Shown one piece after another: positions 1,796-18,898 of a DNA stretch of 34,917 nt (positions within the stretch are counted from its first letter, which is position 1; each line of letters begins with the position of its first letter). The stretch is from the IMG/VR virus record IMGVR_UViG_2541047813_000003, positions 1 through 34,917 of that record, one strand, 5' to 3'. A program made the position numbers and the translations under genes. The notes beneath the pieces are model-generated. The model was not told the origin of the DNA. It was given only the letters and a program-made list of their open reading frames with translations, and ran no database searches. This DNA comes from a virus. Its lineage: Duplodnaviria; Heunggongvirae; Uroviricota; Caudoviricetes.

Positions 1796-2014
1796 TTACA
1801 ATCCCCATTGTTTGTTCTTAAGTTCGATCTCCTCCTGGCAACTTGCACAAGTCCGACAACCCTGAACGGCCAGGCGTCTTCGCTCATCTATGGGATCGCC
1901 ACACTCACAACAATGAGTGGCAGATATAGCCTGGTGGTTCAGGCGGCGCATTTTTATTGCTGTGTTGCGCTGTAATTCTTCAATTTCTGATGCTGAATCA
2001 ATGATGTCTGCCAT
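1796..2014 (-). CDS. TraR/DksA-family C4-type zinc-finger protein
   Basis: 72 aa with CxxC...CxxC (CCECGDPIDERR...CRTCASCQ), matching the TraR/DksA zinc-finger pattern found in F plasmid TraR and small lambdoid phage ORFs. Confidence 0.7.
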   Translation of the reverse strand: MADIIDSASEIEELQRNTAIKMRRLNHQAISATHCCECGDPIDERRRLAVQGCRTCASCQEEIELKNKQWGL

Positions 2015-2335: not shown

Positions 2336-3088
2336 TCACACTTCGAATGCCAACTGAGGGGTAAAGACGTCCCGTTCAGCGTTGTAATTAAGTGAACTGG
2401 CACTGTTGAATGATTCAATGCGTTCCACAAGAACTTGCGTACGGGTTTCTTTACTTGCGGGAGCATATGGCGAACCTACCCAGGATTTGTCGATGCCTAT
2501 ATTTCTTGCGACGTTCGTGCTGTCTGCAGACGAAAGCGGTACATGAGTAAAAATGTCTTTATTTAACATCCGTAACCCATGAATCTTGGTGATTGGGTAG
2601 CCGTACTGATCTACAACATGACGTATAAGATCGCGTAGTTTAGCCCGACACGCTCTCGGTCGTTTTGCATCGTATTCCCCCATCGAGCCGATGCAGACGC
2701 GGGGAAACTCATGGCACAGACGAATAAATCGCTCATCTGGTTCGTTCATGTGCCACACCGGAGCACCAATAAATTTACCGTGAGGCCATGCCGCAATCAG
2801 GGCGTCATTCTCTTCACTGGTTCCGCCGATAACATCCGGGATAACCGCGAATGAGAAACGAGGGTGATTACCCCAGCGTTCAACAAATCTGTAATATTCA
2901 TTCCAGTCTACGGCCTTGTTTTTTGTCCAGAATGTGAATGCACCATTATCAAGAGCAAATGATTGGGTGACTTCGGAAGCCAGATCAATCTGAGCTGGAT
3001 TAGCAAAACTGATGAATGCGTGTCTGCCTTTCCAGGCTTTCAACGCACAGGTATCGGGAGTTATTGGACCACCGTGAAAATGAATCAT
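2336..3088 (-). CDS. TGT-fold protein, DpdA-like (putative 7-deazaguanine DNA transglycosylase); assignment tentative
   Basis: 250 aa. Motifs in conserved order resembling tRNA-guanine transglycosylase as I recall it: ALDNGAFTF (cf. Tgt LTDSGGFQV), VIPDVIGG, CIGSMGEY, SADSTNVARNIG (cf. Tgt FDCVMPTRNARNG). No Zn-binding CxCxxC...H, as in phage DpdA. Start ATG overlaps the stop of the upstream small ORF (ATGA). Confidence 0.6.
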   Translation of the reverse strand: MIHFHGGPITPDTCALKAWKGRHAFISFANPAQIDLASEVTQSFALDNGAFTFWTKNKAVDWNEYYRFVERWGNHPRFSFAVIPDVIGGTSEENDALIAAWPHGKFIGAPVWHMNEPDERFIRLCHEFPRVCIGSMGEYDAKRPRACRAKLRDLIRHVVDQYGYPITKIHGLRMLNKDIFTHVPLSSADSTNVARNIGIDKSWVGSPYAPASKETRTQVLVERIESFNSASSLNYNAERDVFTPQLAFEV

Positions 3089-3249: not shown

Positions 3250-3920
3250 TGCTCCCCAAATACAAAACCAATTTCAGCCAGTGCCTCGTCCATTTTTTCG
3301 ATGAACTCCGGCACCATCTCGTCAAAACTCGCCATGTACTTTTCATCCCGCTCAACCACGACATAATGCAGTCCTTCACGCTTCATACGCGGGTCATAGT
3401 TGGCAAAGTACCAGGCATCTTTTCGCGTCACCCACATGCTGTACTGCACCTGGGCCATGTAAGCTGACTTTATGGCCTCGAAACCACCGAGCCGGAACTT
3501 CATGAAATCCCGGGAGGTAAACGGGCATTTCAGTTCAAGGCCGTTGCCGTCACTGCATAAACCATCTGGAGAGCAGGCGGTACGCATACTTTCGTCGCGA
3601 TAGATGATCGGTGATTCAGTAACATTCACGCCGGAAGTGAACTCAAACAGGGCTCTGGCGTCGTTCTCGTACTGTTTTCCCCAGGCCAGCGCTTTAGCGT
3701 TAACTTCCGGAGCCACACCGGTGCAAACCTCAGCAAGCAGGGTGTGGAAGTAGGACATTTTCATGTCAGGCCACTTTTTTCCGGAGCGGGGTTTTGCTAT
3801 TACGTTATGAACTTCTGAAGCTGTGATGACGCCGAGCCGTAATTTGTGCCACGCATCATCCCCCTGTTCGACAGCTCTCACGTCGATCCCGGTACGCTGC
3901 AGGATAATGTCCGGTGTCAT
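3240..3920 (-). CDS. exo: Lambda exonuclease (Red alpha)
   Basis: 226-aa translation essentially identical to phage lambda Exo as I remember it; overlaps the bet stop. Confidence 0.95.
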
Positions 3921-4702
3921 GCTGCCACCTTCTGCTCTGCGGCTTTCTGTTTCAGGAATCCAAGAGCTTTTACTGCTTCGGCCTGTGTCAGTTCTGACGA
4001 TGCGCGAATGTCGCGGCGAAATATCTGGGAACAGAGCGGCAATAAGTCGTCATCCCATGTTTTATCCAGGGCGATCAGCAGAGTGTTAATCTCCTGCATG
4101 CTTTCATCGTTAACCGGAGTGATGTCGCGTTCCGGCTGACGTTCTGCAGTGTATGCGGTATTTTCGACAATGCGCTCGGCTTCATCCTTGTCATAGATAC
4201 CAGCAAATCCGAAGGCCAGACGGGCACACTGAATCATAGCTTTATGCCGTAACATTCGTTTGGGATGCGACTGCCACGGTCCCGTGATTTCTCTGCCTTC
4301 GCGGGTTTTGAATGGTTCGCGGCGGCATTCATCCATCCACTCGGTAACGCAGATCGGATGATTACGGTCCTTGCGGTAAATCCGGCATGTACATGATTCA
4401 TTGTCCTGCTCAAAGTCCATGCCATCAAACTGCTGGTTTTCATTAATGATGCGGGACCAGCCATCAACGCCCACCACAGGAACGATGCCGTTCTGCTTAT
4501 CAGGGAAGGCGTAAATTTCTTTCGTCCACGGATTAAGGCCGTACTGGTTGGCGACGATCAGCAATGCGATGAACTGCGCATCGCTGGCATCACCTTTAAA
4601 TGCCGTCTGACGAAGAGTGGTGATCAGTTCCTGTGGGTCGACAGAATCCATGCCGACACGTTCAGCCAGCTTCCCGGCTAGCGTTGCGAGTGCTGTACTC
4701 AT
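3917..4702 (-). CDS. bet: Red beta single-strand annealing protein
   Basis: 261-aa translation essentially identical to lambda Bet ([37 protein letters not shown]...). Confidence 0.95.
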
Positions 4703-4707
4703 CCGTT

Positions 4708-5004
4708 TTATACCTCTGAATCAATATCAACATGGTGGTGAGCAATGGTTTCAACCATGTACCGGATGTGTTCTGCCATGCGCTCCTGAAACTCAACATC
4801 GTCATCAAACGCACGGGTAATGGCTTTTTTGCTGGCCCCGCAGCGTTGCAAATGATCGATGCAGAGTGATTCAAACAGGTGCTGTGGAAGACCTTTTTCC
4901 ATGTCGTCTGCCAGTTCTGCCTCTTTCTCTTCACGGGCGATCTGCTGGTAGTGACGCGCCCAGCTTTGAGCCTCAAGACGATCCTGAATGTAATAAGCGT
5001 TCAT
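4708..5004 (-). CDS. gam: Gam, RecBCD inhibitor (short 98-aa form)
   Basis: 98-aa translation matches lambda Gam ([34 protein letters not shown]...). An in-frame TAA lies upstream of the ATG, so no long N-terminal extension is encoded. Confidence 0.9.
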
Positions 5005-5079: not shown

Positions 5080-5370
5080 TTAGTGATTCAGGCCGTTGCC
5101 GCGCCCGTCGAGAAAAACTTCCACGAGCAAATCACGGGTATAAGTGCGCTCGATGCCGCGATGCAGATAAAGCCGTCCGCGTAAATTAGCTGATGCAGTC
5201 CAGGTACCATCTTTGTGTTTGACCAGCATTCCTGGCATGACCGCACCTCGATTAACGGTCTGCGTTCCGTAATGTTGATGAACCATAAAAACTCCTGCCC
5301 GTAAGCTGGGCTGCTGAACATATAGAGACTTCTGCGCGTATTCAGGCGGTGGATGGCCGCCGGTTGTCAT
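5080..5370 (-). CDS. Hypothetical protein, first gene downstream of predicted pL (lambda N/kil position)
   Basis: 96 aa from the ATG at 5370 (GAGGCGG RBS about 8 nt upstream). The ORF track extends the frame to a TTG at 5490, adding an arginine-rich stretch (RLREVRGVKRTRERR). Function unknown. Confidence 0.4.
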
Positions 5371-5508
5371 AACTAAGCCGCCTCGTTGAAACGACTGAGG
5401 TATGAAGTGTTGAGTTGATTTCAGCTGGTCACACCGACGTTCACGCGTCCGCTTCACCCCTCGCACTTCCCGAAGCCTGCTGAAATTCAAGCTGCGGACC
5501 TAAGCGGT

Positions 5509-5558
5509 CATCGCAACGGTGAATCAGGTGGTTGCCGTATCGTTGTGTTGTTGCGATG
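5509..5558 (-). promoter_or_regulatory. Stem-loop at the 5' end of the predicted pL transcript
   Basis: On the minus strand CAUCGCAAC ...32 nt... GUUGCGAUG (9-bp perfect inverted repeat), beginning at about +1 of the predicted pL transcript; no U-tract follows, so not a terminator. Confidence 0.3.
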
Positions 5559-5563
5559 AATTT

Positions 5564-5592
5564 ATTTAAAACTATAGTTGTTTTGTTGTCAA
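5564..5592 (-). promoter_or_regulatory. Predicted leftward early promoter pL
   Basis: Minus strand TTGACA (plus 5587-5592), 17-bp spacer, TTAAAT (plus 5564-5569); sits between the repressor-operon terminator and the leftward early genes. Confidence 0.5.
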
Positions 5593-5729: not shown

Positions 5730-5762
5730 GGGGATAAAAGAAAACCCGGCACGGTGGCCGGG
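5730..5762 (-). terminator. Intrinsic terminator ending the repressor operon
   Basis: Minus-strand hairpin CCCGGC-CACCGU-GCCGGG followed by UUUUCUUUUAU, starting 6 nt after the stop of the 5768-6709 gene. Confidence 0.6.
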
Positions 5763-5767
5763 TATCT

Positions 5768-6709
5768 TTATTCGAATGGAAGATCTATTTGCCTTTGAGG
5801 ATTCAACTGTTTTTTTACATGCTCAATTTCGAATATGGTTTTTATGGCATCTCCGATCATATATTGAGTTACTTTTAAATCTACAAGTAACATATCACCT
5901 TTAGAAAAATTTAAGGTGTTGTTATCAATATCGCTGATGAATTTCTGGTCTTTTATTTCAGCCAAAAAGCTACTGGCACCATCAGAAAACCGCCACCGGC
6001 TTCCTTCATTGAAGGAAATATTTTTAATTTGAAGGGCTTTCTCTACTGTGTACTCTGAAATTATTGATTCTGCTGGTAGATTGACTTTGAAATAATGTGC
6101 TTCTTGCTTGTTGATCGTCATGAATGTCAAACCATCATCGACAGTAGAGGCAAAGCTGTCAATGCCTTCCTGCTCTAATGGCTTACTTATAACTTCTTGT
6201 AATGAAGAGCGAAGTTTAATATTTTTATAAAGTTCAATAACGTTACTGTCGTAGATCTCGCTTTCGTCATCAACAAAGACTTCGATGTTGCTATCAGGCA
6301 AATTGTGTAATTTTTTTATTTTCCTTGGACCTATCCATTTTATCAGTTGAATTAGGCCTTTGCATATTTTTTCTTTAGAACCAGGACAGAGTCCAATAAA
6401 AGCAATCAAATTCGCAGCGGCTGTTGCTGAATCGCCGGATAAAAAATCAACAGCCTGTTTGAACCAAGATGTAGATGAGGCAACCAGATCTATTCCAAAT
6501 GAGCCAGCTTTAAATGATGCATTGACTTTTACAGAAACAACAGTCTTGTTTCCGTAGAGAGTTTTACCGGCTTCCTCTAATGCATCTGATAGTGATAGAA
6601 GGGCAGGAGCAAGGTCTCGCACGTTCATTTCATGCGTTTCCAGTGCCGGACCGTCGTATACTATCCTGAACTTCATATCATTGGTTTCCGAATTGTTGCC
6701 CGCATCCAT
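5768..6709 (-). CDS. Uncharacterized protein (about 313 aa) in the rexAB-equivalent slot, co-oriented with cI
   Basis: ORF 5768-6721 (GTG at 6721); first ATG at 6709 with AGGTGA RBS, alternative ATG at 6676. AT-rich relative to flanks. No recognisable catalytic or membrane motif; the sequence does not remind me of RexA/RexB. Confidence 0.75.
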   Translation of the reverse strand: MDAGNNSETNDMKFRIVYDGPALETHEMNVRDLAPALLSLSDALEEAGKTLYGNKTVVSVKVNASFKAGSFGIDLVASSTSWFKQAVDFLSGDSATAAANLIAFIGLCPGSKEKICKGLIQLIKWIGPRKIKKLHNLPDSNIEVFVDDESEIYDSNVIELYKNIKLRSSLQEVISKPLEQEGIDSFASTVDDGLTFMTINKQEAHYFKVNLPAESIISEYTVEKALQIKNISFNEGSRWRFSDGASSFLAEIKDQKFISDIDNNTLNFSKGDMLLVDLKVTQYMIGDAIKTIFEIEHVKKQLNPQRQIDLPFE

Positions 6710-6782
6710 TATGGCATTCACCTGATCACATATACAGTTAATTTACGATATTGTCTTAAATCTTAAAACTTCTATTGTATGG

Positions 6783-7472
6783 CTACCCATGCTTCCTATA
6801 CGTCTGCGGCATGCTCCCAATAACCTTACCGAAGATGAACACCCGGTTCATCTCGTCTTTCTCGATCGGGTCCCAAGGTGAGTAGCTCTTGTTATCAGAG
6901 ATAACCAGCAGCTTATCCTTCATCATTTGCAGACGCTTTACATGGGCTGTGTCGTCGTACAGAAACGCATAGATACCATCACCGTCGAAAGATTTAACCG
7001 TGATATCAACGAACAGCAGATCACCTGGTTCGATCGTTCCTGACATGCTGTCACCGCGTACGTTAATGATACGGATATTTTCCGCCTTCCTGCCATCGAA
7101 CATGTGACGAGCATCGTCAAACGAATACTCAACCGAACGTAGAACTTCTACAAACTCACGGTTGATGACTCCCGGCCCGGCACTCACTTCGATATCAAGA
7201 ACGTCAATCTTAAAGTATTTGGAATGGCTGACAGTTGTTTGTATTGGTTGCACTGTACTGTCTGACATATTTCCAACGCCAGAAGATAACCATTCTGCGC
7301 GCACACCCAAAGCGTTCGCGATCTCCACGATTTTAGTTGTTTGGTTAGCTTTCCCTGTTTCGATTTTCTGAATAGCTGCTTGGCTAACCCCGACCAAATC
7401 CCCAAGCGCCTTTTGTGTAAGGCCTCGCGCTAATCTGGCTTCTTTAAGTCTTTCTGAGAGTGTTGTTTTCAT
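6783..7472 (-). CDS. Prophage repressor (CI-type; N-terminal HTH plus C-terminal S24 LexA-like peptidase domain)
   Basis: 229 aa from the ATG at 7472: HTH (LTQKALGDLVGVSQAAIQKIE), Ala-Gly cleavage site (EVSAGPG), catalytic Ser (GDSMSGT) and Lys (VKRLQ). No SD before the ATG, and pRM -10 is 6 nt upstream, so the mRNA is probably leaderless as for lambda cI. Confidence 0.85.
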   Translation of the reverse strand: MKTTLSERLKEARLARGLTQKALGDLVGVSQAAIQKIETGKANQTTKIVEIANALGVRAEWLSSGVGNMSDSTVQPIQTTVSHSKYFKIDVLDIEVSAGPGVINREFVEVLRSVEYSFDDARHMFDGRKAENIRIINVRGDSMSGTIEPGDLLFVDITVKSFDGDGIYAFLYDDTAHVKRLQMMKDKLLVISDNKSYSPWDPIEKDEMNRVFIFGKVIGSMPQTYRKHG

Positions 7473-7478
7473 AGTCCA

Positions 7479-7507
7479 AATGTACAACCAAGGTTTTATT
7501 TCATCAA
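7479..7507 (-). promoter_or_regulatory. Predicted repressor maintenance promoter (pRM-like)
   Basis: Minus strand TTGATG (plus 7502-7507), 17-bp spacer, TACATT (plus 7479-7484), ending 6 nt before the cI ATG. Confidence 0.45.
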
Positions 7508-7514
7508 ACGAAAA

Positions 7515-7537
7515 TGGTTGTTGACTAAAAACAACCA
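7515..7537. promoter_or_regulatory. Candidate oR operator palindrome overlapping pR -35
   Basis: TGGTTGTT-GACTAAA-AACAACCA (8-bp perfect inverted arms); an adjacent 10-bp palindrome AACCATGGTT (7532-7541) and AACCAAGGTT (7487-7496) share the same half-site. Confidence 0.45.
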
Positions 7538-7549
7538 TGGTTTTAATCT
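7521..7549 (+). promoter_or_regulatory. Predicted rightward early promoter pR
   Basis: TTGACT (7521-7526), 17-bp spacer, TAATCT (7544-7549); followed by a GGAGG RBS and the cro-like ATG at 7577. Confidence 0.55.
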
Positions 7550-7576
7550 TGATTCAAATTAACCACGGAGGTTGTT

Positions 7577-7807
7577 ATGAACCCAGCCATCAAAACAGCG
7601 ATCAATATCGTTGGTTCACAAAAGAAACTAGGCGCTGCCTGCGAAGTTTCACAGCAGGCCGTCTATAAGTGGCTTCACAACAAAGCAAAGGTATCCCCTG
7701 AACATGTCGGCAGCATTGTTACGGCTACTGGTGGAGTAGTGAAGGCATACCAGATTCGCCCGGATCTTCCGAAGTTGTTTCCACACACTGAAAAGAACGC
7801 AGCTTAA
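7577..7807 (+). CDS. Cro-like HTH regulator
   Basis: 76-aa ORF divergent from the repressor gene, with an HTH-like segment (QKKLGAACEVSQQAVYKWL). Confidence 0.8.
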   Translation: MNPAIKTAINIVGSQKKLGAACEVSQQAVYKWLHNKAKVSPEHVGSIVTATGGVVKAYQIRPDLPKLFPHTEKNAA

Positions 7808-7819
7808 ATTTCCATTTCA

Positions 7820-7833
7820 CGCTCTTTAACAAT
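7820..7833 (+). promoter_or_regulatory. boxA-like element (nutR-position)
   Basis: CGCTCTTTAACAAT just after the cro-like stop; matches the boxA consensus CGCTCTTTA and the rrn-type boxA GCTCTTTAACAAT as I recall them. No convincing boxB hairpin follows. Confidence 0.4.
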
Positions 7834-7876
7834 AAGCAATCAACTTAACAGTCAATTCAAACTAAAGGAGTCAATT

Positions 7877-8416
7877 ATGCAACCACTTACATACCAACAG
7901 ACTAGCGGATTTAGCCCGACTGCGGTGATAAATCGTTCTCAAACAAAACAAGCTCCAGGCCACGAAAAAATCCGTGATGCCGTCCGCGCCTGGTCGGCTG
8001 TAGATAATCAGGATGTCGTTGCCGCACTCATTGTGAATGAGTATCGGGAGCAGGGCGGCGGCACCATCGATTTCCCTGATGATGTCAGCCGTGCACGCCA
8101 GAAGCTGTTCCGCTTCCTCGATAACAAATTCGATTCTGAAAAATACCGAAATAACGTGCGTGAACTGACCCCGGCAATTCTGGCGGTACTACCGCTGGAA
8201 TATCGCGGTTACCTAGTTGAGCAGGATAGCTTCATGGCTCGGCTGGCTGAAATGGAAAAGGAACTCAGTGAGGCAAAGCAGGCGGTCATTCTCAACGCAC
8301 CACGCCACCAGAAACTGAAGGAGATGAGTGAAGGCATTGTGTCGATGTTTCGAGTGGACCCGGATCTGGCTGGTCCACTGATGGCGATGGTCACCACCAT
8401 GCTGGGGGCAATATGA
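7877..8416 (+). CDS. Hypothetical protein in the cII position (possibly YdaT-like)
   Basis: 179-aa ORF with strong RBS (AAAGGAG); contains an EYREQGGG segment reminiscent of YdaT-type proteins that follow Cro-like genes in some E. coli prophages (recollection only). Confidence 0.6.
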   Translation: MQPLTYQQTSGFSPTAVINRSQTKQAPGHEKIRDAVRAWSAVDNQDVVAALIVNEYREQGGGTIDFPDDVSRARQKLFRFLDNKFDSEKYRNNVRELTPAILAVLPLEYRGYLVEQDSFMARLAEMEKELSEAKQAVILNAPRHQKLKEMSEGIVSMFRVDPDLAGPLMAMVTTMLGAI

Positions 8417-8502
8417 CAGGTTCAGAAATGGCGAAAGCCGGTCTGCTGGAACAGAACCGACTTTCAGGTGCAAATCGTAACACACTCATTGCGGGAGGAA
8501 TT

Positions 8503-9432
8503 ATGGCAAACACTGCTGAGATATTCAATTTTCCAGTGCCGGATGCGGCACAAAAGGAGCCGCGCGTGGCAGATCTCGATGATGGTTATACGCGCATTGC
8601 AAATGAGTTGCTGGAAGCTGTGATGCTGGCCGGATTAACACAGCACCAGCTTCTGGTCTTTCTGGCTGTCATGCGCAAAACATATGGCTTTAATAAAAAA
8701 CTGGATTGGGTTAGCAACGAGCAACTTTCCGAATTAACCGGGATATTGCCGCACAAGTGTTCTGCTGCAAAAAGTGTTCTGGTAAAGCGTGGGATTTTTA
8801 TTCAGAGCGGGCGGAATACCGGCATTAATAATGTGGTCAGTGAATGGTCTACATTACCCGAATCAGGTAAGAAAAATAAAGTTTACCTGAAAGAGGTAAA
8901 TTTACCTGAATCAGGTAAAAAAAGTTTACCCAAATCAGGTAAAGGCGTTTACCCGAATCAGGTAAACACAAAAGACAAACTAACAAAAGACAATATAAAA
9001 CCTTTTTCGTCCGAGAATTCTGGCGAATCCTCTGACCAACCAGAAAACGATCTTCCTGTGGTGAAACCGGATGCTGCAATTCAGAGCGGCAGCAAGTGGG
9101 GGACAGCAGAAGACCTGACCGCCGCAGAGTGGATGTTTGACATGGTGAAGACCATCGCGCCATCAGCCAGAAAACCGAATTTTGCAGGGTGGGCTAACGA
9201 TATCCGCCTGATGCGTGAACGTGACGGACGTAACCACCGCGACATGTGCGTGCTGTTCCGCTGGGCATGCCAGGACAACTTCTGGTCCGGTAACGTGCTA
9301 AGTCCGGCCAAACTCCGCGACAAGTGGACCCAACTCGAAATCAACCGTAACAAGCAACAGGCAGGCGTGACAGCTAGCAAACCAAAACTCGACCTGACAA
9401 ACACAGACTGGATTTACGGGGTGGATCTATGA
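8503..9432 (+). CDS. O: Replication initiator protein O (lambda-type)
   Basis: N-terminus MANTAEIFNF...VADLDDGYTRIANELLEA resembles lambda O; ATG at 8503 has a strong GGGAGGA RBS (the ORF track extends upstream to 8413); the C-terminal half is near-identical to lambda O; iterons lie inside the gene. Confidence 0.85.
   Translation: MANTAEIFNFPVPDAAQKEPRVADLDDGYTRIANELLEAVMLAGLTQHQLLVFLAVMRKTYGFNKKLDWVSNEQLSELTGILPHKCSAAKSVLVKRGIFIQSGRNTGINNVVSEWSTLPESGKKNKVYLKEVNLPESGKKSLPKSGKGVYPNQVNTKDKLTKDNIKPFSSENSGESSDQPENDLPVVKPDAAIQSGSKWGTAEDLTAAEWMFDMVKTIAPSARKPNFAGWANDIRLMRERDGRNHRDMCVLFRWACQDNFWSGNVLSPAKLRDKWTQLEINRNKQQAGVTASKPKLDLTNTDWIYGVDL
8853..8966. repeat. Replication origin iterons (ori-lambda-type) inside O
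   Basis: Four to five copies of an about 19-bp unit TTTACCYGAATCAGGTAAA with internal dyad TTACC...GGTAA (8853-8871, degenerate 8881-8900, 8901-8919, 8925-8943, 8948-8966), followed by an A-rich stretch (8967-9010). Confidence 0.8.
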
Positions 9433-10130
9433 AAAACATCGCCGCACAGATGATTAACTTTGACCGTGAGCAGATGCGCCGGATCGCCAACAACATGCCG
9501 GAACAGTACGACGAAAAGCCGCAGGTACAGCAGGTAGCGCAGATAATCAACGGTGTATTCAGCCAGTTACTGGCAACTTTCCCGGCGAGCCTGGCTAATC
9601 GTGACCAGAACGAACTGAACGAAATCCGCCGCCAGTGGGTTCTGGCTTTCCGGGAAAACGGGATCACCACGATGGAACAGGTGAGCGCCGGAATGCGTGT
9701 TGCCCGTCGGCAGAATAGACCATTTCTGCCATCACCCGGGCAGTTTGTTGCATGGTGCCGGGAAGAAGCATCCGTTACCGCCGGGCTGCCAAACGTCAGC
9801 GAGCTGGTTGATATGGTTTACGAGTATTGCCGGAAGCGTGGTCTGTATCCGGATGCAGAGTCTTATCCGTGGAAATCAAACGCGCACTACTGGCTGGTTA
9901 CCAACCTGTATCAGAACATGCGGGCCAATGCGTTGACTGACGCGGAATTACGGCGCAAGGCTGCCGATGAACTGTCCTGTATGACCGCGCGAATTAACCG
10001 TGGTGAGGCGATACCTGAACCAGTAAAACAACTTCCTGTCATGGGCGGTAGACCTCTAAATCGTGCACAGGCTCTGGCGAAGATCGCAGAAATCAAAGCT
10101 AAGTTTGGGCTGAAAGGAGCAATTGTATGA
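9429..10130 (+). CDS. P: Replication protein P (DnaB helicase loader)
   Basis: 233-aa translation essentially identical to lambda P; ATG overlaps the O stop. Confidence 0.95.
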   Translation: MKNIAAQMINFDREQMRRIANNMPEQYDEKPQVQQVAQIINGVFSQLLATFPASLANRDQNELNEIRRQWVLAFRENGITTMEQVSAGMRVARRQNRPFLPSPGQFVAWCREEASVTAGLPNVSELVDMVYEYCRKRGLYPDAESYPWKSNAHYWLVTNLYQNMRANALTDAELRRKAADELSCMTARINRGEAIPEPVKQLPVMGGRPLNRAQALAKIAEIKAKFGLKGAIV

Positions 10131-10429
10131 CGGGCAAAGAGGCAATTATTCATTACTTGGGGACTCATAAGAACTTCTGTGCGCAGGACGTTGCCGCGGT
10201 AACAGGTGCAACCGTAACCAGCATAAATCAGGCTGCGGCTAAAATGGCGCGGGCAGGAATCCTGGTCGTTGATGGTAAGGTCTGGCGAACGGTGTATTAT
10301 CGGTTCGCTACCAGAGAAGAATGGGAAGGAAAGGTGAGCACGAATTTGATTTTTAAGGAGTGTCGCCAGAGTGCCGCGATGAAACGGGTATTGAGGGTAT
10401 ATAAAAGAACATCAATGGGTACACAATGA
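10127..10429 (+). CDS. ren: Ren
   Basis: 100-aa translation closely resembles lambda Ren (MTGKEAIIHYLGTH...VTSINQAAAKMARAG...). Confidence 0.85.
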   Translation: MTGKEAIIHYLGTHKNFCAQDVAAVTGATVTSINQAAAKMARAGILVVDGKVWRTVYYRFATREEWEGKVSTNLIFKECRQSAAMKRVLRVYKRTSMGTQ

Positions 10430-10829: not shown

Positions 10830-11084
10830 AAATAATTTGTTTTTAAACGACTAAAATATGGAGGCTCGTATATTTATATGGGCCTCGTTTTATGCTTTTT
10901 GTTAATGTCTTTAGTTTTTATTCATTCTTTTGTGCTTTCAAGATTATGGTGTAAGAAAATTGCAATGCGATTATTGTTGTATATTCAAGATAATGTGACC
11001 TTAATTGTCTTTTTAAATAAAAATTAAACAAAAATCATATCTCACCACTAAGGTTTATAAAAGCATACTTTAGCAGGTGTCACC

Positions 11085-12611: not shown

Positions 12612-12935
12612 GTAATAATCACTTTTTCAACCGTGCTATGGTATGAAAGTAAAGTGACTAATATGATATTAACTATCTTGAACGAAGCGCCCTGAGCTAT
12701 AGTTTTACTATAGGCACTGCCACTGGATGTTGGCATTCTTGCTCTAGTAGCTCAACAATACCCAATCACAAAACAATTCACTGATAACAAACTTTGTGCA
12801 CGTGCTTGGTTATGGCGAACAGGTGATGTTAACCTCTTGCCTGAATGCCACTCCACTTCATTAAGTATCTGAGCACCGAGAGGCTGGTCACGCCCCCATT
12901 AAAAATAATTTCTTTTGAATCGAGTGAAATAGGTT

Positions 12936-12962
12936 AGCCCGCATAAGTGCGGGCTGCTTTTT
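12936..12962 (+). terminator. Intrinsic terminator-like hairpin
   Basis: AGCCCGCA-TAAG-TGCGGGCT followed by GCTTTTT; lies between the convergent recombinase and esterase genes. Confidence 0.45.
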
Positions 12963-13968
12963 ACAGGTCAGCGTTTGTTTTTTGTTGTTGGGTAGCGGTT
13001 TTTATGGGGGTTCCCAGGTTTTTAGTAAACCACTCAACAACTCTGTTTATAATAATTGGCTGATACCATGTATTATCGCCATGCTCAGCCCCTTCTACCA
13101 GAACGTACTCAGCGTTATCGCCGTTCTTCTTCAACATCCTGAATAGTTTGGCGCTTTGCTCAGGTGAAACCAGAGTGTCTTTGCTACCATGCATAATAAG
13201 AAATGGGGGTTTTACTCCTTTCATATGTCCGATTGGACTGGCGTTTAGCGCTTTTTCTTTTGACGCTGTTATGGGGGCTCCCGCAAAACTTCTGAATGCA
13301 GGGCCATTGATCATTAAGGCTTCGGTTACGGCAGGAGATCGATGAACCTCCTGCACTGATTCAGGGAACCCCTCGCCAATATTCAACAAGTCAGAAATCC
13401 CATAAAGTGTGGCAACTGCCTGAACATCTGCTGATTGCTGAAGAAAGTCACCTTTATTAAAGGTTTTGTCACCATTTGTAGTTCCCATCATCTGGGCAAG
13501 CCATCCACCGGCAGAGTCACCCAGAACTCCGATTCTTTGAGGATCAATCCCATAATCGCTGGCATGTTCTCTCAAGTAACGTATTGCAGCTTTCCCATCC
13601 TCAACTGGTGCTGGAAATGTATCAGGAATTGTTCTGTATTCTACAGCGGCCACAACAAAACCAGCTTCAGCCAGAGCCATTCTCATTTCAATAAATTTGT
13701 CATGTTCAGAAGACATGAATCCGCCGCCGGGATAATAAATAATGGCTGGTTTTAAATCATTTGTTCGCGGGACAAGAACTGACATGTGAAGCTGTCTGAC
13801 AGAACGAGTTCCTTTTATCTGGGAATAAACAACATCACCAATGAGATCGACCTGGTTTCTGGTGGGTGAAACACTAATGATATCTGCACCCGGGGTGTAA
13901 CCAGGAAAATTAGTCTGGACAGGTGTTGCACAACTCCCGACCGACATGGCCATTGACATACCATACAA
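12961..13968 (-). CDS. Alpha/beta-hydrolase fold esterase/lipase (HGGG-type)
   Basis: 335-aa ORF with oxyanion-hole motif YYPGGGF, nucleophile elbow GDSAGG and a C-terminal His (AEHGDN); N-terminus ambiguous (see findings). Confidence 0.8.
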   Translation of the reverse strand: MYGMSMAMSVGSCATPVQTNFPGYTPGADIISVSPTRNQVDLIGDVVYSQIKGTRSVRQLHMSVLVPRTNDLKPAIIYYPGGGFMSSEHDKFIEMRMALAEAGFVVAAVEYRTIPDTFPAPVEDGKAAIRYLREHASDYGIDPQRIGVLGDSAGGWLAQMMGTTNGDKTFNKGDFLQQSADVQAVATLYGISDLLNIGEGFPESVQEVHRSPAVTEALMINGPAFRSFAGAPITASKEKALNASPIGHMKGVKPPFLIMHGSKDTLVSPEQSAKLFRMLKKNGDNAEYVLVEGAEHGDNTWYQPIIINRVVEWFTKNLGTPIKTATQQQKTNADL

Positions 13969-14353
13969 TAGTGTTGCAGATGATAATATCTTGTTAATTT
14001 TTATGTTTTACATGCCTTGACTTATCGGATGAAATTCTCTTACTGAATTTAACGGCAGTTTAATAGCAGTACAACTCGTGGTAGCTAGGGAAATATCCCA
14101 GTCGTGGTTAAGGTTGTACTTGACGGCTATTATTTCAACAATGCTTAAAGTGAGAGCTTAAGGTTATGCGTATGTTTTACAGTCCGAGTAGATTCTGACC
14201 AATAGCTTCTTTGTATAATTCTGTCAGAAATAAATCTTGGCTTGCATGAAGTTTGAGACCTTATCTTGTTTGATTATGAATAATCAATTCGCCATAATTG
14301 TATCACCGGAGCCTGAACAACTCCTGTGACTTCTGCGCTAAACGGGGACGTTT

Positions 14354-15856: not shown

Positions 15857-15941
15857 AGTCAGAGATAACAATCAACTAATACTGTTTTGTTGATTTTTGC
15901 TTGTAATTGGCGTTCTGGTCTGATTTTTGTGGAGTAAGTTG

Positions 15942-16325
15942 ATGCGTGATATTCAGATGGTTCTTGAGCGTTGGGGAGCGTGGGCGGCTAATAATCATGA
16001 AGATGTGACCTGGTCGTCCGTTGCCGCCGGTTTTAAGGGATTAATTCCTTCAAAAGTAAAATCTCGCCCGCAATGTTGTGACGATGACGCGATGATCATT
16101 TGCGGGTGCATGGCCCGTCTGAAAAAGAACAACAGCGATTTACACGATTTATTAGTAGATTATTATGTATGTGGTATGACATTCATGTCACTGGCAAGTA
16201 AGCATTGCTGCTCGGATGGTTATATCGGGAAAAGGTTACAGAAGGCTGAGGGCATAATTGAAGGGATGTTAATGGCATTAGATATCCGGTTAGATATGGA
16301 TATCGTTGCTAATAATTCTAATTGA
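15942..16325 (+). CDS. Q: Late-gene antiterminator Q (phage 21/DLP12 QuuD type)
   Basis: 127 aa from the ATG at 15942 (GGAGTAAG RBS); [26 protein letters not shown]...; matches my recollection of DLP12 QuuD. Confidence 0.85.
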
Positions 16326-18185: not shown

Positions 18186-18401
18186 ATGAAATCCATGGAT
18201 AAGTTAACAACGGGTGTCGCCTATGGCACCTCAGCAGGTAGTGCCGGGTACTGGTTTTTACAGTTGCTCGATAAAGTCACGCCCTCACAGTGGGCGGCAA
18301 TAGGTGTGCTGGGTAGTCTGGTATTTGGCTTGCTGACGTATCTGACAAACCTTTATTTCAAGATTAAAGAAGATAAGCGTAAGGCTGCGAGAGGTGAATA
18401 A
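18186..18401 (+). CDS. S: Class II pinholin (S21 type) with dual-start motif
   Basis: 71 aa [26 protein letters not shown]...; two TM segments; Met1 and Met4 give the antiholin/holin dual start typical of phage 21 S; GAGGTGGGG RBS. Confidence 0.9.
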
Positions 18402-18898
18402 TGTCGCCATCATTACGCAAGGCTATTGCTGCTGCTATTGGTGGTGGGGCTGTTGCCATAGCGTCTGTGCTCATCACTGGTCCGAGTGGTGACGATGGCC
18501 TGGAAGGTGTCAGCTACATACCATACAAAGATATCGTTGGCGTATGGACTGTATGTCACGGACACACCGGAAAAGACATCATGCTCGGTAAAACGTATAC
18601 CGAAGCAGAATGCAAAGCCCTCCTGAATAAAGACCTTGCCACTGTCGCCAGACAAATTAACCCGTACATCACAGTCGATATACCGGAAACAACGCGCGGC
18701 GCTCTTTACTCATTCGTTTACAACGTGGGCGCTGGCAATTTCAGAACATCGACGCTTCTTCGCAAAATAAACCAGGGCGATATCAAAGGCGCATGTGATC
18801 AGCTACGGCGCTGGACATACGCTGGCGGTAAGCAATGGAAAGGGCTGATGACTCGCCGTGAGATTGAGCGTGAAGTCTGTTTGTGGGGGCAACAATGA
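18401..18898 (+). CDS. R: SAR endolysin (T4-lysozyme-like muramidase, R21 type)
   Basis: 165 aa; N-terminal Gly/Ala-rich signal-arrest-release TM segment ([18 protein letters not shown]) followed by a lysozyme domain; start overlaps the holin stop (TAATG). Confidence 0.9.

Follow-up and report, generated by a model that had tools for sequence, protein, structure and literature searches.

Processive antitermination has its textbook case in the early genes of lambdoid phages, where two solutions are known: the N protein acting with nut sites, and the put RNA. The put RNA, about 70 nt long with two GC-rich stem-loops, is known to serve lambdoid phages without N, and it acts on RNA polymerase directly, whereas boxA acts via Nus factors. 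It is established that NusB/S10 binds a consensus boxA and that Nus complexes can counteract Rho even when there is no N. What, then, might a boxA do that stands at the nutR position and has been stripped of both boxB and N? Such an arrangement is seen at the locus described here, which lies in a stretch of 34,917 nucleotides that we call the window. Widespread, functional phages and prophages of Escherichia coli that have neither N-nut nor put keep a perfect host-type boxA at the nutR place.

The early region of the window

The DNA is that of a lambda-like prophage of E. coli, its type being DLP12 or Bievrevirus-like. The features of its early region that bear on the question are as follows.

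3917-4702, minus strand: bet
4708-5004, minus strand: gam
about 5080-5286, minus strand: kil (phrog_294)
about 5560-5590, minus strand: pL (TTGACA...TTAAAT), with a non-coding leader of ~260 nt from pL to kil
5744-5763: intrinsic terminator
5768-6721, minus strand: 317-aa ORF (phrog_3243), an accessory ('moron') gene with its own terminator at 5744-5763
6783-7472, minus strand: cI (S24/HTH), divergent from cro
7521-7549, plus strand: putative pR, with a -35 of TTGACT (7521-7526), a 17-nt spacer and a -10 of TAATCT (7544-7549)
7577-7807, plus strand: cro analogue of 76 aa with a YdaS-type helix-turn-helix, stop codon TAA at 7805-7807
7808-7876, plus strand: untranslated cro-cII spacer of 69 nt
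7820-7833, plus strand: boxA CGCTCTTTAACAAT, with its core GCTCTTTAACA at 7821-7831, 45 nt 5' of the cII-like ATG
7845-7857, plus strand: probable deletion scar TTAACAG/TCAATT, with one arm of a former hairpin left in the window (CAGTC, 7849-7853)
7877-8416, plus strand: cII analogue of the YdaT family, 179 aa, the first gene 3' of boxA
8413-9432, plus strand: O (Phage_rep_O), overlapping P
9429-10130, plus strand: P (Phage_lambda_P), overlapping ren
10127-10429, plus strand: ren (Ren-like)

Pfam and PHROG scans matched the cro analogue to PF15943 (4e-17), weakly to P22_Cro, and to phrog_35 (transcriptional repressor); the cII analogue matched PF06254 (1e-29) and phrog_163 (CII-like activator). 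The putative pR scores below the promoter-scan threshold and is assigned from its position between the divergent cI and cro genes; its site falls within the operator-like inverted repeat ATGGTTGTTGACTAAAAACAACCAT (7514-7538). If transcription starts there, boxA is at about +265 on the RNA. After ren the gene order is emrE, a ybcK-like recombinase, a convergent esterase gene, and then ninB through a Q-like antiterminator (15927-16325). From cro to emrE the genes overlap or are tightly packed, so that apart from the 69-nt spacer there is little untranslated RNA for Rho.

Intrinsic-terminator-like hairpins are found 3' of emrE (10861-10886) and 3' of the ybcK-like recombinase gene (12935-12956), and the convergent esterase gene (12961-13968, minus strand) lies between ren and ninB/Q. 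The plaque-forming phage PhiR47_2 has this same terminator/esterase block. A promoter-like site is located at 14270-14298.

A consensus boxA follows the cro analogue

A preliminary description of the window had placed an rrn-type boxA just past the stop codon of the cro-like gene, matching both the consensus and, over 13 nt, the boxA of ribosomal RNA operons. Both points are borne out. Twelve nucleotides intervene between the cro stop and CGCTCTTTAACAAT, which begins at the 13th nucleotide past the stop. Its last 13 nt (GCTCTTTAACAAT) show no difference from the boxA of the E. coli rrn leader, 5'-CACugcucuuuaacaauuua-3' (PMC2724277), and its core GCTCTTTAACA conforms to GYTCTTTAANA, the consensus that Baniulyte et al. 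give for gamma-proteobacteria (PMC5725501/10.1101/091223), including the critical C4, in the sense orientation with respect to pR-cro-cII. The nutR site of lambda has cgcucuuacaca (PMC2724277).

The match is statistically significant. The exact boxA 12-mer is the sole match in the window even with two mismatches allowed; chance alone predicts 0.004 copies per window, counting both strands, and 3e-6 on the sense strand of the 69-nt spacer, and the expectation for the exact match of 13-14 nt to the rrn boxA is about 1e-6 in the spacer. The 9-mer CGCTCTTTA contained in the motif is by itself not significant (0.27 expected per window). No further site within one mismatch of the boxA consensus was found on either early transcript. 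The element is predicted to be accessible as single-stranded RNA, since it is fully unpaired in the centroid structure of 7800-7900. The pR transcript thus carries a genuine consensus boxA in the place usual for nutR.

A second exact copy of CGCTCTTTA occurs at 18700-18708 on the plus strand, within the lysozyme ORF (18401-18898). Because this 9-mer is expected 0.27 times per window, we regard that copy as a chance match.

The spacer RNA is unstructured and G-poor

Folding revealed no hairpin in the 43 nt between boxA and the YdaT-type cII analogue (7834-7876), in keeping with the earlier remark that no convincing boxB follows. The minimum free energy of RNA 7800-7900 is -4.1 kcal/mol (z = +0.19) and that of RNA 7820-7879 is -3.6 kcal/mol (z = -0.26). 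In the minimum-free-energy fold the boxA segment GCUCUUU pairs weakly with AAAGGAGU of the Shine-Dalgarno region. The spacer (7808-7876) has the composition A27 C15 G6 T21, with a C/G ratio of about 2.5. This G-poor, unstructured RNA is what would be expected of a Rho-loading (rut-like) region such as lambda tR1.

The direct repeat AGTCAATT noticed in the preliminary description is real (7850-7857 and 7869-7876), and a third, related copy, AATCAACT, lies at 7838-7845. All copies contain TCAA and read TTGACT or TTGATT on the minus strand, and the last one (7869-7876) overlaps the Shine-Dalgarno sequence AAGGAG at 7865-7870. Prophage CP-933P, with a related but different immunity region (PaaR2/YdaS/YdaT, with a YdaT of about 141 aa), has a YdaT half-site AATCAA/TTGATT and a YdaT-activated promoter between ydaS and ydaT (PMC9986795, PMC8630535); these two studies make no mention of boxA, nut or terminators. 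The repeats of the window are similar to this half-site and would be better candidates for DNA sites of the CII analogue, or for part of a pRE-like region, than for RNA signals. As for boxA itself, we considered its complement as the -10 of a leftward pRE-like promoter and rejected this, the candidates TTGTTA, and TGAAAT at a 19-nt spacing, being poor.

The window has no recognizable N, nutL or put

The preliminary description had suggested that the organization may differ from that of lambda N-nut, and in this it was right: the window contains no N gene, nutL, second boxA or put RNA. ORF and PHROG analysis placed only kil between pL and gam. In tblastn searches with the N proteins of phi80, lambda, P22 and phi21 and with HK022 Nun, nothing was found in the window at E<=1. 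Of these queries, only that of phi80 N was taken from a database record; the same five queries do recover N in control loci. PHROG and Pfam scans of the early ORFs of the left and right operons found no N, and there is no small basic ORF with a coding signature near pL or pR.

One candidate was tried and rejected, namely that ORF 5080-5490 (minus strand), with its arginine-rich N-terminus (..VKRTRERR..), encodes an N-like protein fused to Kil. The phrog_294 Kil match covers only residues 60-136 of this ORF. In 48 natural variants, substitutions at the three codon positions numbered 8/4/5 in the upstream part and 5/7/18 in kil. The upstream extension has no third-position bias, unlike kil, and is therefore non-coding leader.

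On the minus strand downstream of pL no boxA-like sequence, and hence no nutL, was found with up to one mismatch (<=1). An Rfam scan of the whole window gave nothing at gathering thresholds, and the pL leader scored no better than shuffled controls against HK022 putL and putR and the HK639 putL-like RNA. The cro-cII spacer has neither two GC-rich stem-loops nor sequence similarity to put. RNAalifold applied to 24-30 variants of the pL leader returned one-sided (wobble) changes only, which are not informative. The leader between pL and kil (5287-5545, minus strand) is strongly structured and is common to the two classes of loci described below, class A and class B, from just past the -10; its segment 5345-5406 corresponds by homology to the stretch of phi80 that lies between tL1A and tL1B, two terminators. 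If there is any leftward antitermination, this leader may be its seat.

Annotated, plaque-forming relatives also have this gene order without N (PhiR47_2, PhiR5_1, PhiR26_1, PhiR34_1, IdasGreatGrand and Turner). With no N and no boxB, the boxA of the window can act only without N. Since a partner hairpin and a leftward site are missing too, it is either a version of the lambda antitermination site that uses host factors only or a remnant of such a lambda-type site.

The lone boxA is widespread but dispensable for the operon

The 401-nt stretch 7500-7900, which covers pR, cro, the spacer and the start of cII, is present in 1524 of 5426 complete E. coli genomes (28%), mostly at 95-99% identity, and in hundreds of IMG/VR contigs. 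We call this group class A. Its loci were sampled in two ways, 80 by cro identity and 30 by cII identity, and the spacers obtained were almost identical. Among the 80 loci the spacer is nearly invariant, with one boxA variant (CGCTCTTTGACAAT) and three or four other changes. Class A copies are 96-100% identical, and such near-identity gives no power to measure purifying selection on boxA. A distant blastn search of phage genomes with the 75-nt spacer found no homologue outside class A except matches confined to boxA. PhiR47_2, PhiR5_1 and other plaque-forming phages carry exactly the hairpin-less spacer of the window. As plaque formers carry this spacer and the region as a whole occurs in 28% of complete E. 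coli genomes, a lone boxA can at least be reconciled with a functional phage.

Class B phages (Perceval, 4A7 and others) have the cII-O-P-ren genes and the pL leader of the window together with a different cro, but their immunity regions are free of boxA throughout, so the operon can do without it. Among diverse YdaT-type cII loci from GTDB species genomes, a consensus boxA was found within 160 nt upstream in only 2 of 52. N was detectable in only 2 of 55 YdaT-type loci, and a recognizable put-like RNA in 5. With boxA in only 2 of 52 YdaT-type loci, the motif is largely not conserved among homologous immunity regions. The processive antitermination of the rightward transcript that had been proposed from the boxA remains a suggestion.

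The hairpin was probably lost by a 12-nt deletion

Five IMG/VR contigs (L104, L171, L345, L346 and L347) have 12 extra nucleotides (ACTGATTAACAG) after position 7851, so that the junction that reads TTAACAG/TCAATT in the window is TTAACAG-ACTGATTAACAG-TCAATT in these siblings. They share cI, cro, the pL leader and kil-gam with the window at about 96% identity, and such sibling prophages are rarer than the hairpin-less form. According to folding, the extra nucleotides create a hairpin, GACUG-AUUAA-CAGUC, 17 nt 3' of boxA.

The order cro(YdaS)-boxA-17 nt-hairpin-cII(YdaT) recurs in three distant loci, L118 and L093 from IMG/VR and L295 from Escherichia sp. E1V33, where the hairpin is GGCUGA-(AUUA/GUAA)-UCAGCC. 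Alignment indicated that the sibling and distant hairpins are homologous; one stem pair differs on both sides (G-C to A-U), and the loops are variable. Between diverged flanks, the boxA of the three distant loci is identical at 14 of 14 positions. None of these three loci gave a match to the five N/Nun queries, and their left operons resemble that of HK639.

Since both siblings and distant homologues keep the hairpin, the spacer of the window is most simply a deletion derivative, formed between TTAACAG repeats, of a module of boxA plus hairpin. The reverse event, an imperfect duplication that created the hairpin, is less likely because of the homologues in L118 and L295. Thus, as judged from these alignments, the lone boxA most probably descends from a boxA-hairpin module that a 12-nt deletion has deprived of its hairpin. 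This history suits the decay of a nutR-like module as well as it suits a new design.

The slot after cro is mosaic

In the P22-like Salmonella phage UPF_BP1, an almost exact copy of HK022 putR directly follows a homologous YdaS-type cro (L207 2728-2800). HK639, Klebsiella phage ST101-KPC2phi6.1 and class B phages (Perceval) have a GC hairpin across the stop codon of a homologous cro. Locus L309 has a lambda boxB, with lambda N, after a YdaS-type cro. The Leclercia prophage L298 has a P22-like N, boxA and boxB at both nutR and nutL, and the same boxA upstream of a homologous cII. From these sequence comparisons, the slot after the YdaS-type cro is mosaic and holds different elements in different phages.

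The GC hairpin has the form GCCGC-TTAA(C)-GGCGGC, with variants, over the cro stop and is followed by CCTAACCACGAAAGGGAAAGCAATG (L203 4950-4995, L206 4075-4113 and L205 4220-4275). It is also seen in many of the loci L290-L344, just upstream of the match. Hairpin and CCTAACCACGAAAGGGAAAGCAATG are conserved 5' of the YdaT-type cII across many enterobacterial genera and with several unrelated types of cro.

Comparison with known boxA and put systems

As at lambda nutR, the boxA of the window lies a few nucleotides past the cro stop and before cII on the pR transcript and has the same core, and its G-poor, rut-like surroundings resemble those of lambda tR1. Unlike lambda, the window has no boxB hairpin, N gene or nutL, and its boxA is the rrn consensus rather than lambda's CGCUCUUA. 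It is identical to the rrn leader boxA at 13 of 13 positions (GCUCUUUAACAAU), again with CAC just upstream. The rrn complex (NusA, NusB, NusE, NusG, SuhB and S4) acts without a phage protein, which is the sole mode open to the boxA of the window. In contrast to rrn, the window has no upstream boxB-like hairpin and no boxC, and the downstream RNA is translated mRNA rather than long untranslated rRNA.

Function of boxA without N is documented for rrn, for the suhB 5' UTR (PMC5725501/10.1101/091223) and for CRISPR arrays (PMC7665894). The suhB boxA represses translation and promotes Rho termination (PMC5725501/10.1101/091223), while that of CRISPR leaders blocks Rho (PMC7665894). Baniulyte et al. 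2017 compiled a list of 407 putative boxA sites and used as a criterion for Nus targets a boxA at <=50 nt from a start codon (PMC5725501/10.1101/091223). Like the suhB and CRISPR elements (Baniulyte 2017; Stringer 2020), the window has a stand-alone consensus boxA without N at a short distance from a start codon (45 nt), and Rho would be the expected target. Those elements differ in being chromosomal and experimentally validated, whereas that of the window is a candidate element in a prophage immunity region.

Early leaders of phages outside the lambdoid group contain the element as well. T7, which has no N, has the identical 14-mer CGCTCTTTAACAAT at genome positions 812-825 (L348 413-426), 63 nt past promoter A3. 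In the Vectrevirus ULINTec4 the early region contains boxA twice (L349 893-910 and 1063-1076), and one Vectrevirus copy shares 18 nt, TCACGCTCTTTAACAATA, with the window. By sequence, these T7 and SP6/K1E-like leaders appear comparable to the window in placing boxA on an early transcript made by the host polymerase in a phage without N; they differ in that the phages are virulent and the leader is promoter-proximal and followed by an RNase III site. The 14-mer is also present in leader-like contexts in many IMG/VR phage contigs, often with a GC hairpin immediately 5', as in rrn.

The put RNAs of HK022 and HK639 share with the boxA of the window the slot after a homologous YdaS-type cro, as in UPF_BP1. 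They differ in that the spacer of the window has no two-stem GC-rich structure and that spacer and pL leader have no similarity to put.

Possible roles of the lone boxA

We tentatively favor, at somewhat less than even odds, the view that this boxA is an N-independent loading site for NusB/S10 of the rrn/CRISPR/suhB type that confers partial Rho resistance on the pR transcript. The starting points are the sequence, position and statistical significance of the element and the absence of N, boxB, nutL and put; that Nus factors act here, and that the phage benefits, is what we infer. Established biochemistry predicts that NusB-S10 will bind a consensus boxA exposed on nascent RNA and that a Nus complex will then form on RNA polymerase. 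The NusB-S10 (NusE) dimer would bind the boxA as the spacer RNA emerges and, with NusA, NusG and SuhB, would stay on the elongating RNA polymerase as it does at rrn, CRISPR leaders and the suhB 5' UTR. The most likely outcome would be a modest, partial resistance to Rho, both on the cro-cII spacer, which is a tR1-like place, and along the cII-O-P-ren operon. The intrinsic terminators that follow emrE (10861-10886) and ybcK (12935-12956) would still stop a polymerase with an rrn-type complex; Q is therefore probably reached in some other way.

A bolder version seems to us rather unlikely. It holds that an N-less prophage family, present in ~28% of complete E. coli genomes, has cut nutR down to a bare rrn-consensus boxA and hijacks the host ribosomal antitermination complex, so that the early right operon (the cII analogue, O and P), the lysis-lysogeny decision and replication are tied to Nus-factor and ribosome-synthesis status. 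If true, this would be a third mode of lambdoid early antitermination beside N-nut and put. Class B without boxA, the rarity of boxA in related loci and the lost hairpin all argue against any important role for the element, under the favored view as well. That the hairpin was lost suggests that selection on the module has relaxed, and mosaic exchange at a conserved sequence, instead of selection in genomes without N, could account for the identity of boxA from one lineage to another.

The main rival view, which we find somewhat doubtful, is that the element is a functionless relic of a nutR-type module of boxA and hairpin, left behind after replacement of the pL-proximal region had removed the protein partner. 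The boxA would then persist because the lineage is young or because mosaic recombination re-imports it repeatedly, and Nus binding would be without consequence. Such decay agrees with the 12-nt deletion that took the hairpin out of most copies, the lack of N and nutL, the class B phages with the same operon without boxA, and the rarity of boxA among YdaT-type loci; at 96-100% identity among class A copies, retention needs no selection. It is harder to reconcile with a boxA that is perfect (14/14) while the flanks of class A and of L118/L295 differ strongly, or with the L118/L295 lineages, which gave no match to the five N/Nun queries and have retained boxA as well as a hairpin whose stem has changed in a compensatory way and whose loop varies. 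The identical sequence is kept by T7 and SP6-like phages, which have no N, and an accessible consensus boxA is expected to load Nus factors regardless.

Three further explanations would give the element other tasks. One is control of the cII analogue as in suhB, in which a loop between boxA and RNA polymerase lowers initiation at the Shine-Dalgarno sequence 32 nt downstream and exposes the cII-like mRNA to Rho, so that the CII level and the lysis-lysogeny outcome follow Nus-factor availability. The boxA ends 45 nt 5' of the ATG, inside the <=50-nt window, suhB is regulated in this way, the spacer is rut-like, the deletion moves boxA 12 nt nearer to the Shine-Dalgarno sequence, and GCUCUUU can pair weakly with AAAGGAGU. 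We nevertheless think it improbable: the pairing is weak (-3.6 kcal/mol, z = -0.26) and any boxA generically complements any Shine-Dalgarno sequence, lambdoid boxA elements at this position are normally antiterminating, and with O and P translationally linked downstream, Rho termination in cII would cut off the replication genes too. The chances are slimmer still that boxA, with the hairpin of the siblings, is read by an unrecognized phage antiterminator, an N analogue without detectable similarity and possibly encoded elsewhere, in a cryptic N-nut-like system. N proteins are extremely diverse, and the N-terminal part of phi80 N has no obvious arginine-rich stretch; the N-like Gp17 of mEp021 is encoded in an unusual place, the right operon (PMC11893012); and the lineages of L118, L295 and L104 have conserved the hairpin, with covariation. 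However, the dominant variant, found in viable phages, has no hairpin, there is no second site on the pL transcript and no small basic coding ORF near pL or pR, and every early ORF has another assignment. Least probable of all, to the point of being hard to credit, is a constraint at the DNA level, from a leftward pRE-like promoter or an operator region for the CII analogue, with the likeness to boxA incidental. The YdaT-activated promoter between ydaS and ydaT of CP-933P (PMC9986795, PMC8630535) and the TTGACT, TTGACT and TTGATT on the minus strand of the spacer would agree with such a constraint. An exact 13-14-nt match to the rrn boxA with an expectation of about 1e-6 in the spacer, the occurrence of the same 14-mer in unrelated phage leaders including T7, and the poor -10 candidates that the boxA complement offers 16-19 nt from the -35-like hexamers all argue against it.

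If the lone boxA does work by N-independent Nus loading, the recently recognized targets of such Nus complexes, so far rRNA, suhB and CRISPR arrays, would extend to the development of temperate phages, and natural plaque-forming variants with the hairpin, without the hairpin and without boxA would provide a simple genetic system for the action of a bare Nus complex on a translated operon. If it does not, the locus is a clean example of the decay of a nut module after the loss of N and a warning against inferring antitermination from a boxA motif alone.

Further observations on the left operons

In the HK639-like left operons of L118 (7100-7340 as oriented) and L295 (3940-4260, minus strand), the operon starts with a hairpin that is directly followed by GCTTTTTAACAA, the variant annotated as the nutL boxA in phi80. 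After it comes a long GC-rich leader that is conserved between the two loci, and no N is detectable there. In the window, the 317-aa ORF (5768-6721) fills a rexAB-like slot between cI and pL. Relatives hold GevT/GevA, HipA/HipD or other cassettes at this position, so this is probably a slot for defence or accessory ('moron') genes. The left operon of the window also includes a DksA-like zinc-finger ORF (phrog_54; 1796-2014, minus strand) and an ORF at 2336-3088 (minus strand) that matches the queuine tRNA-ribosyltransferase family (phrog_887).
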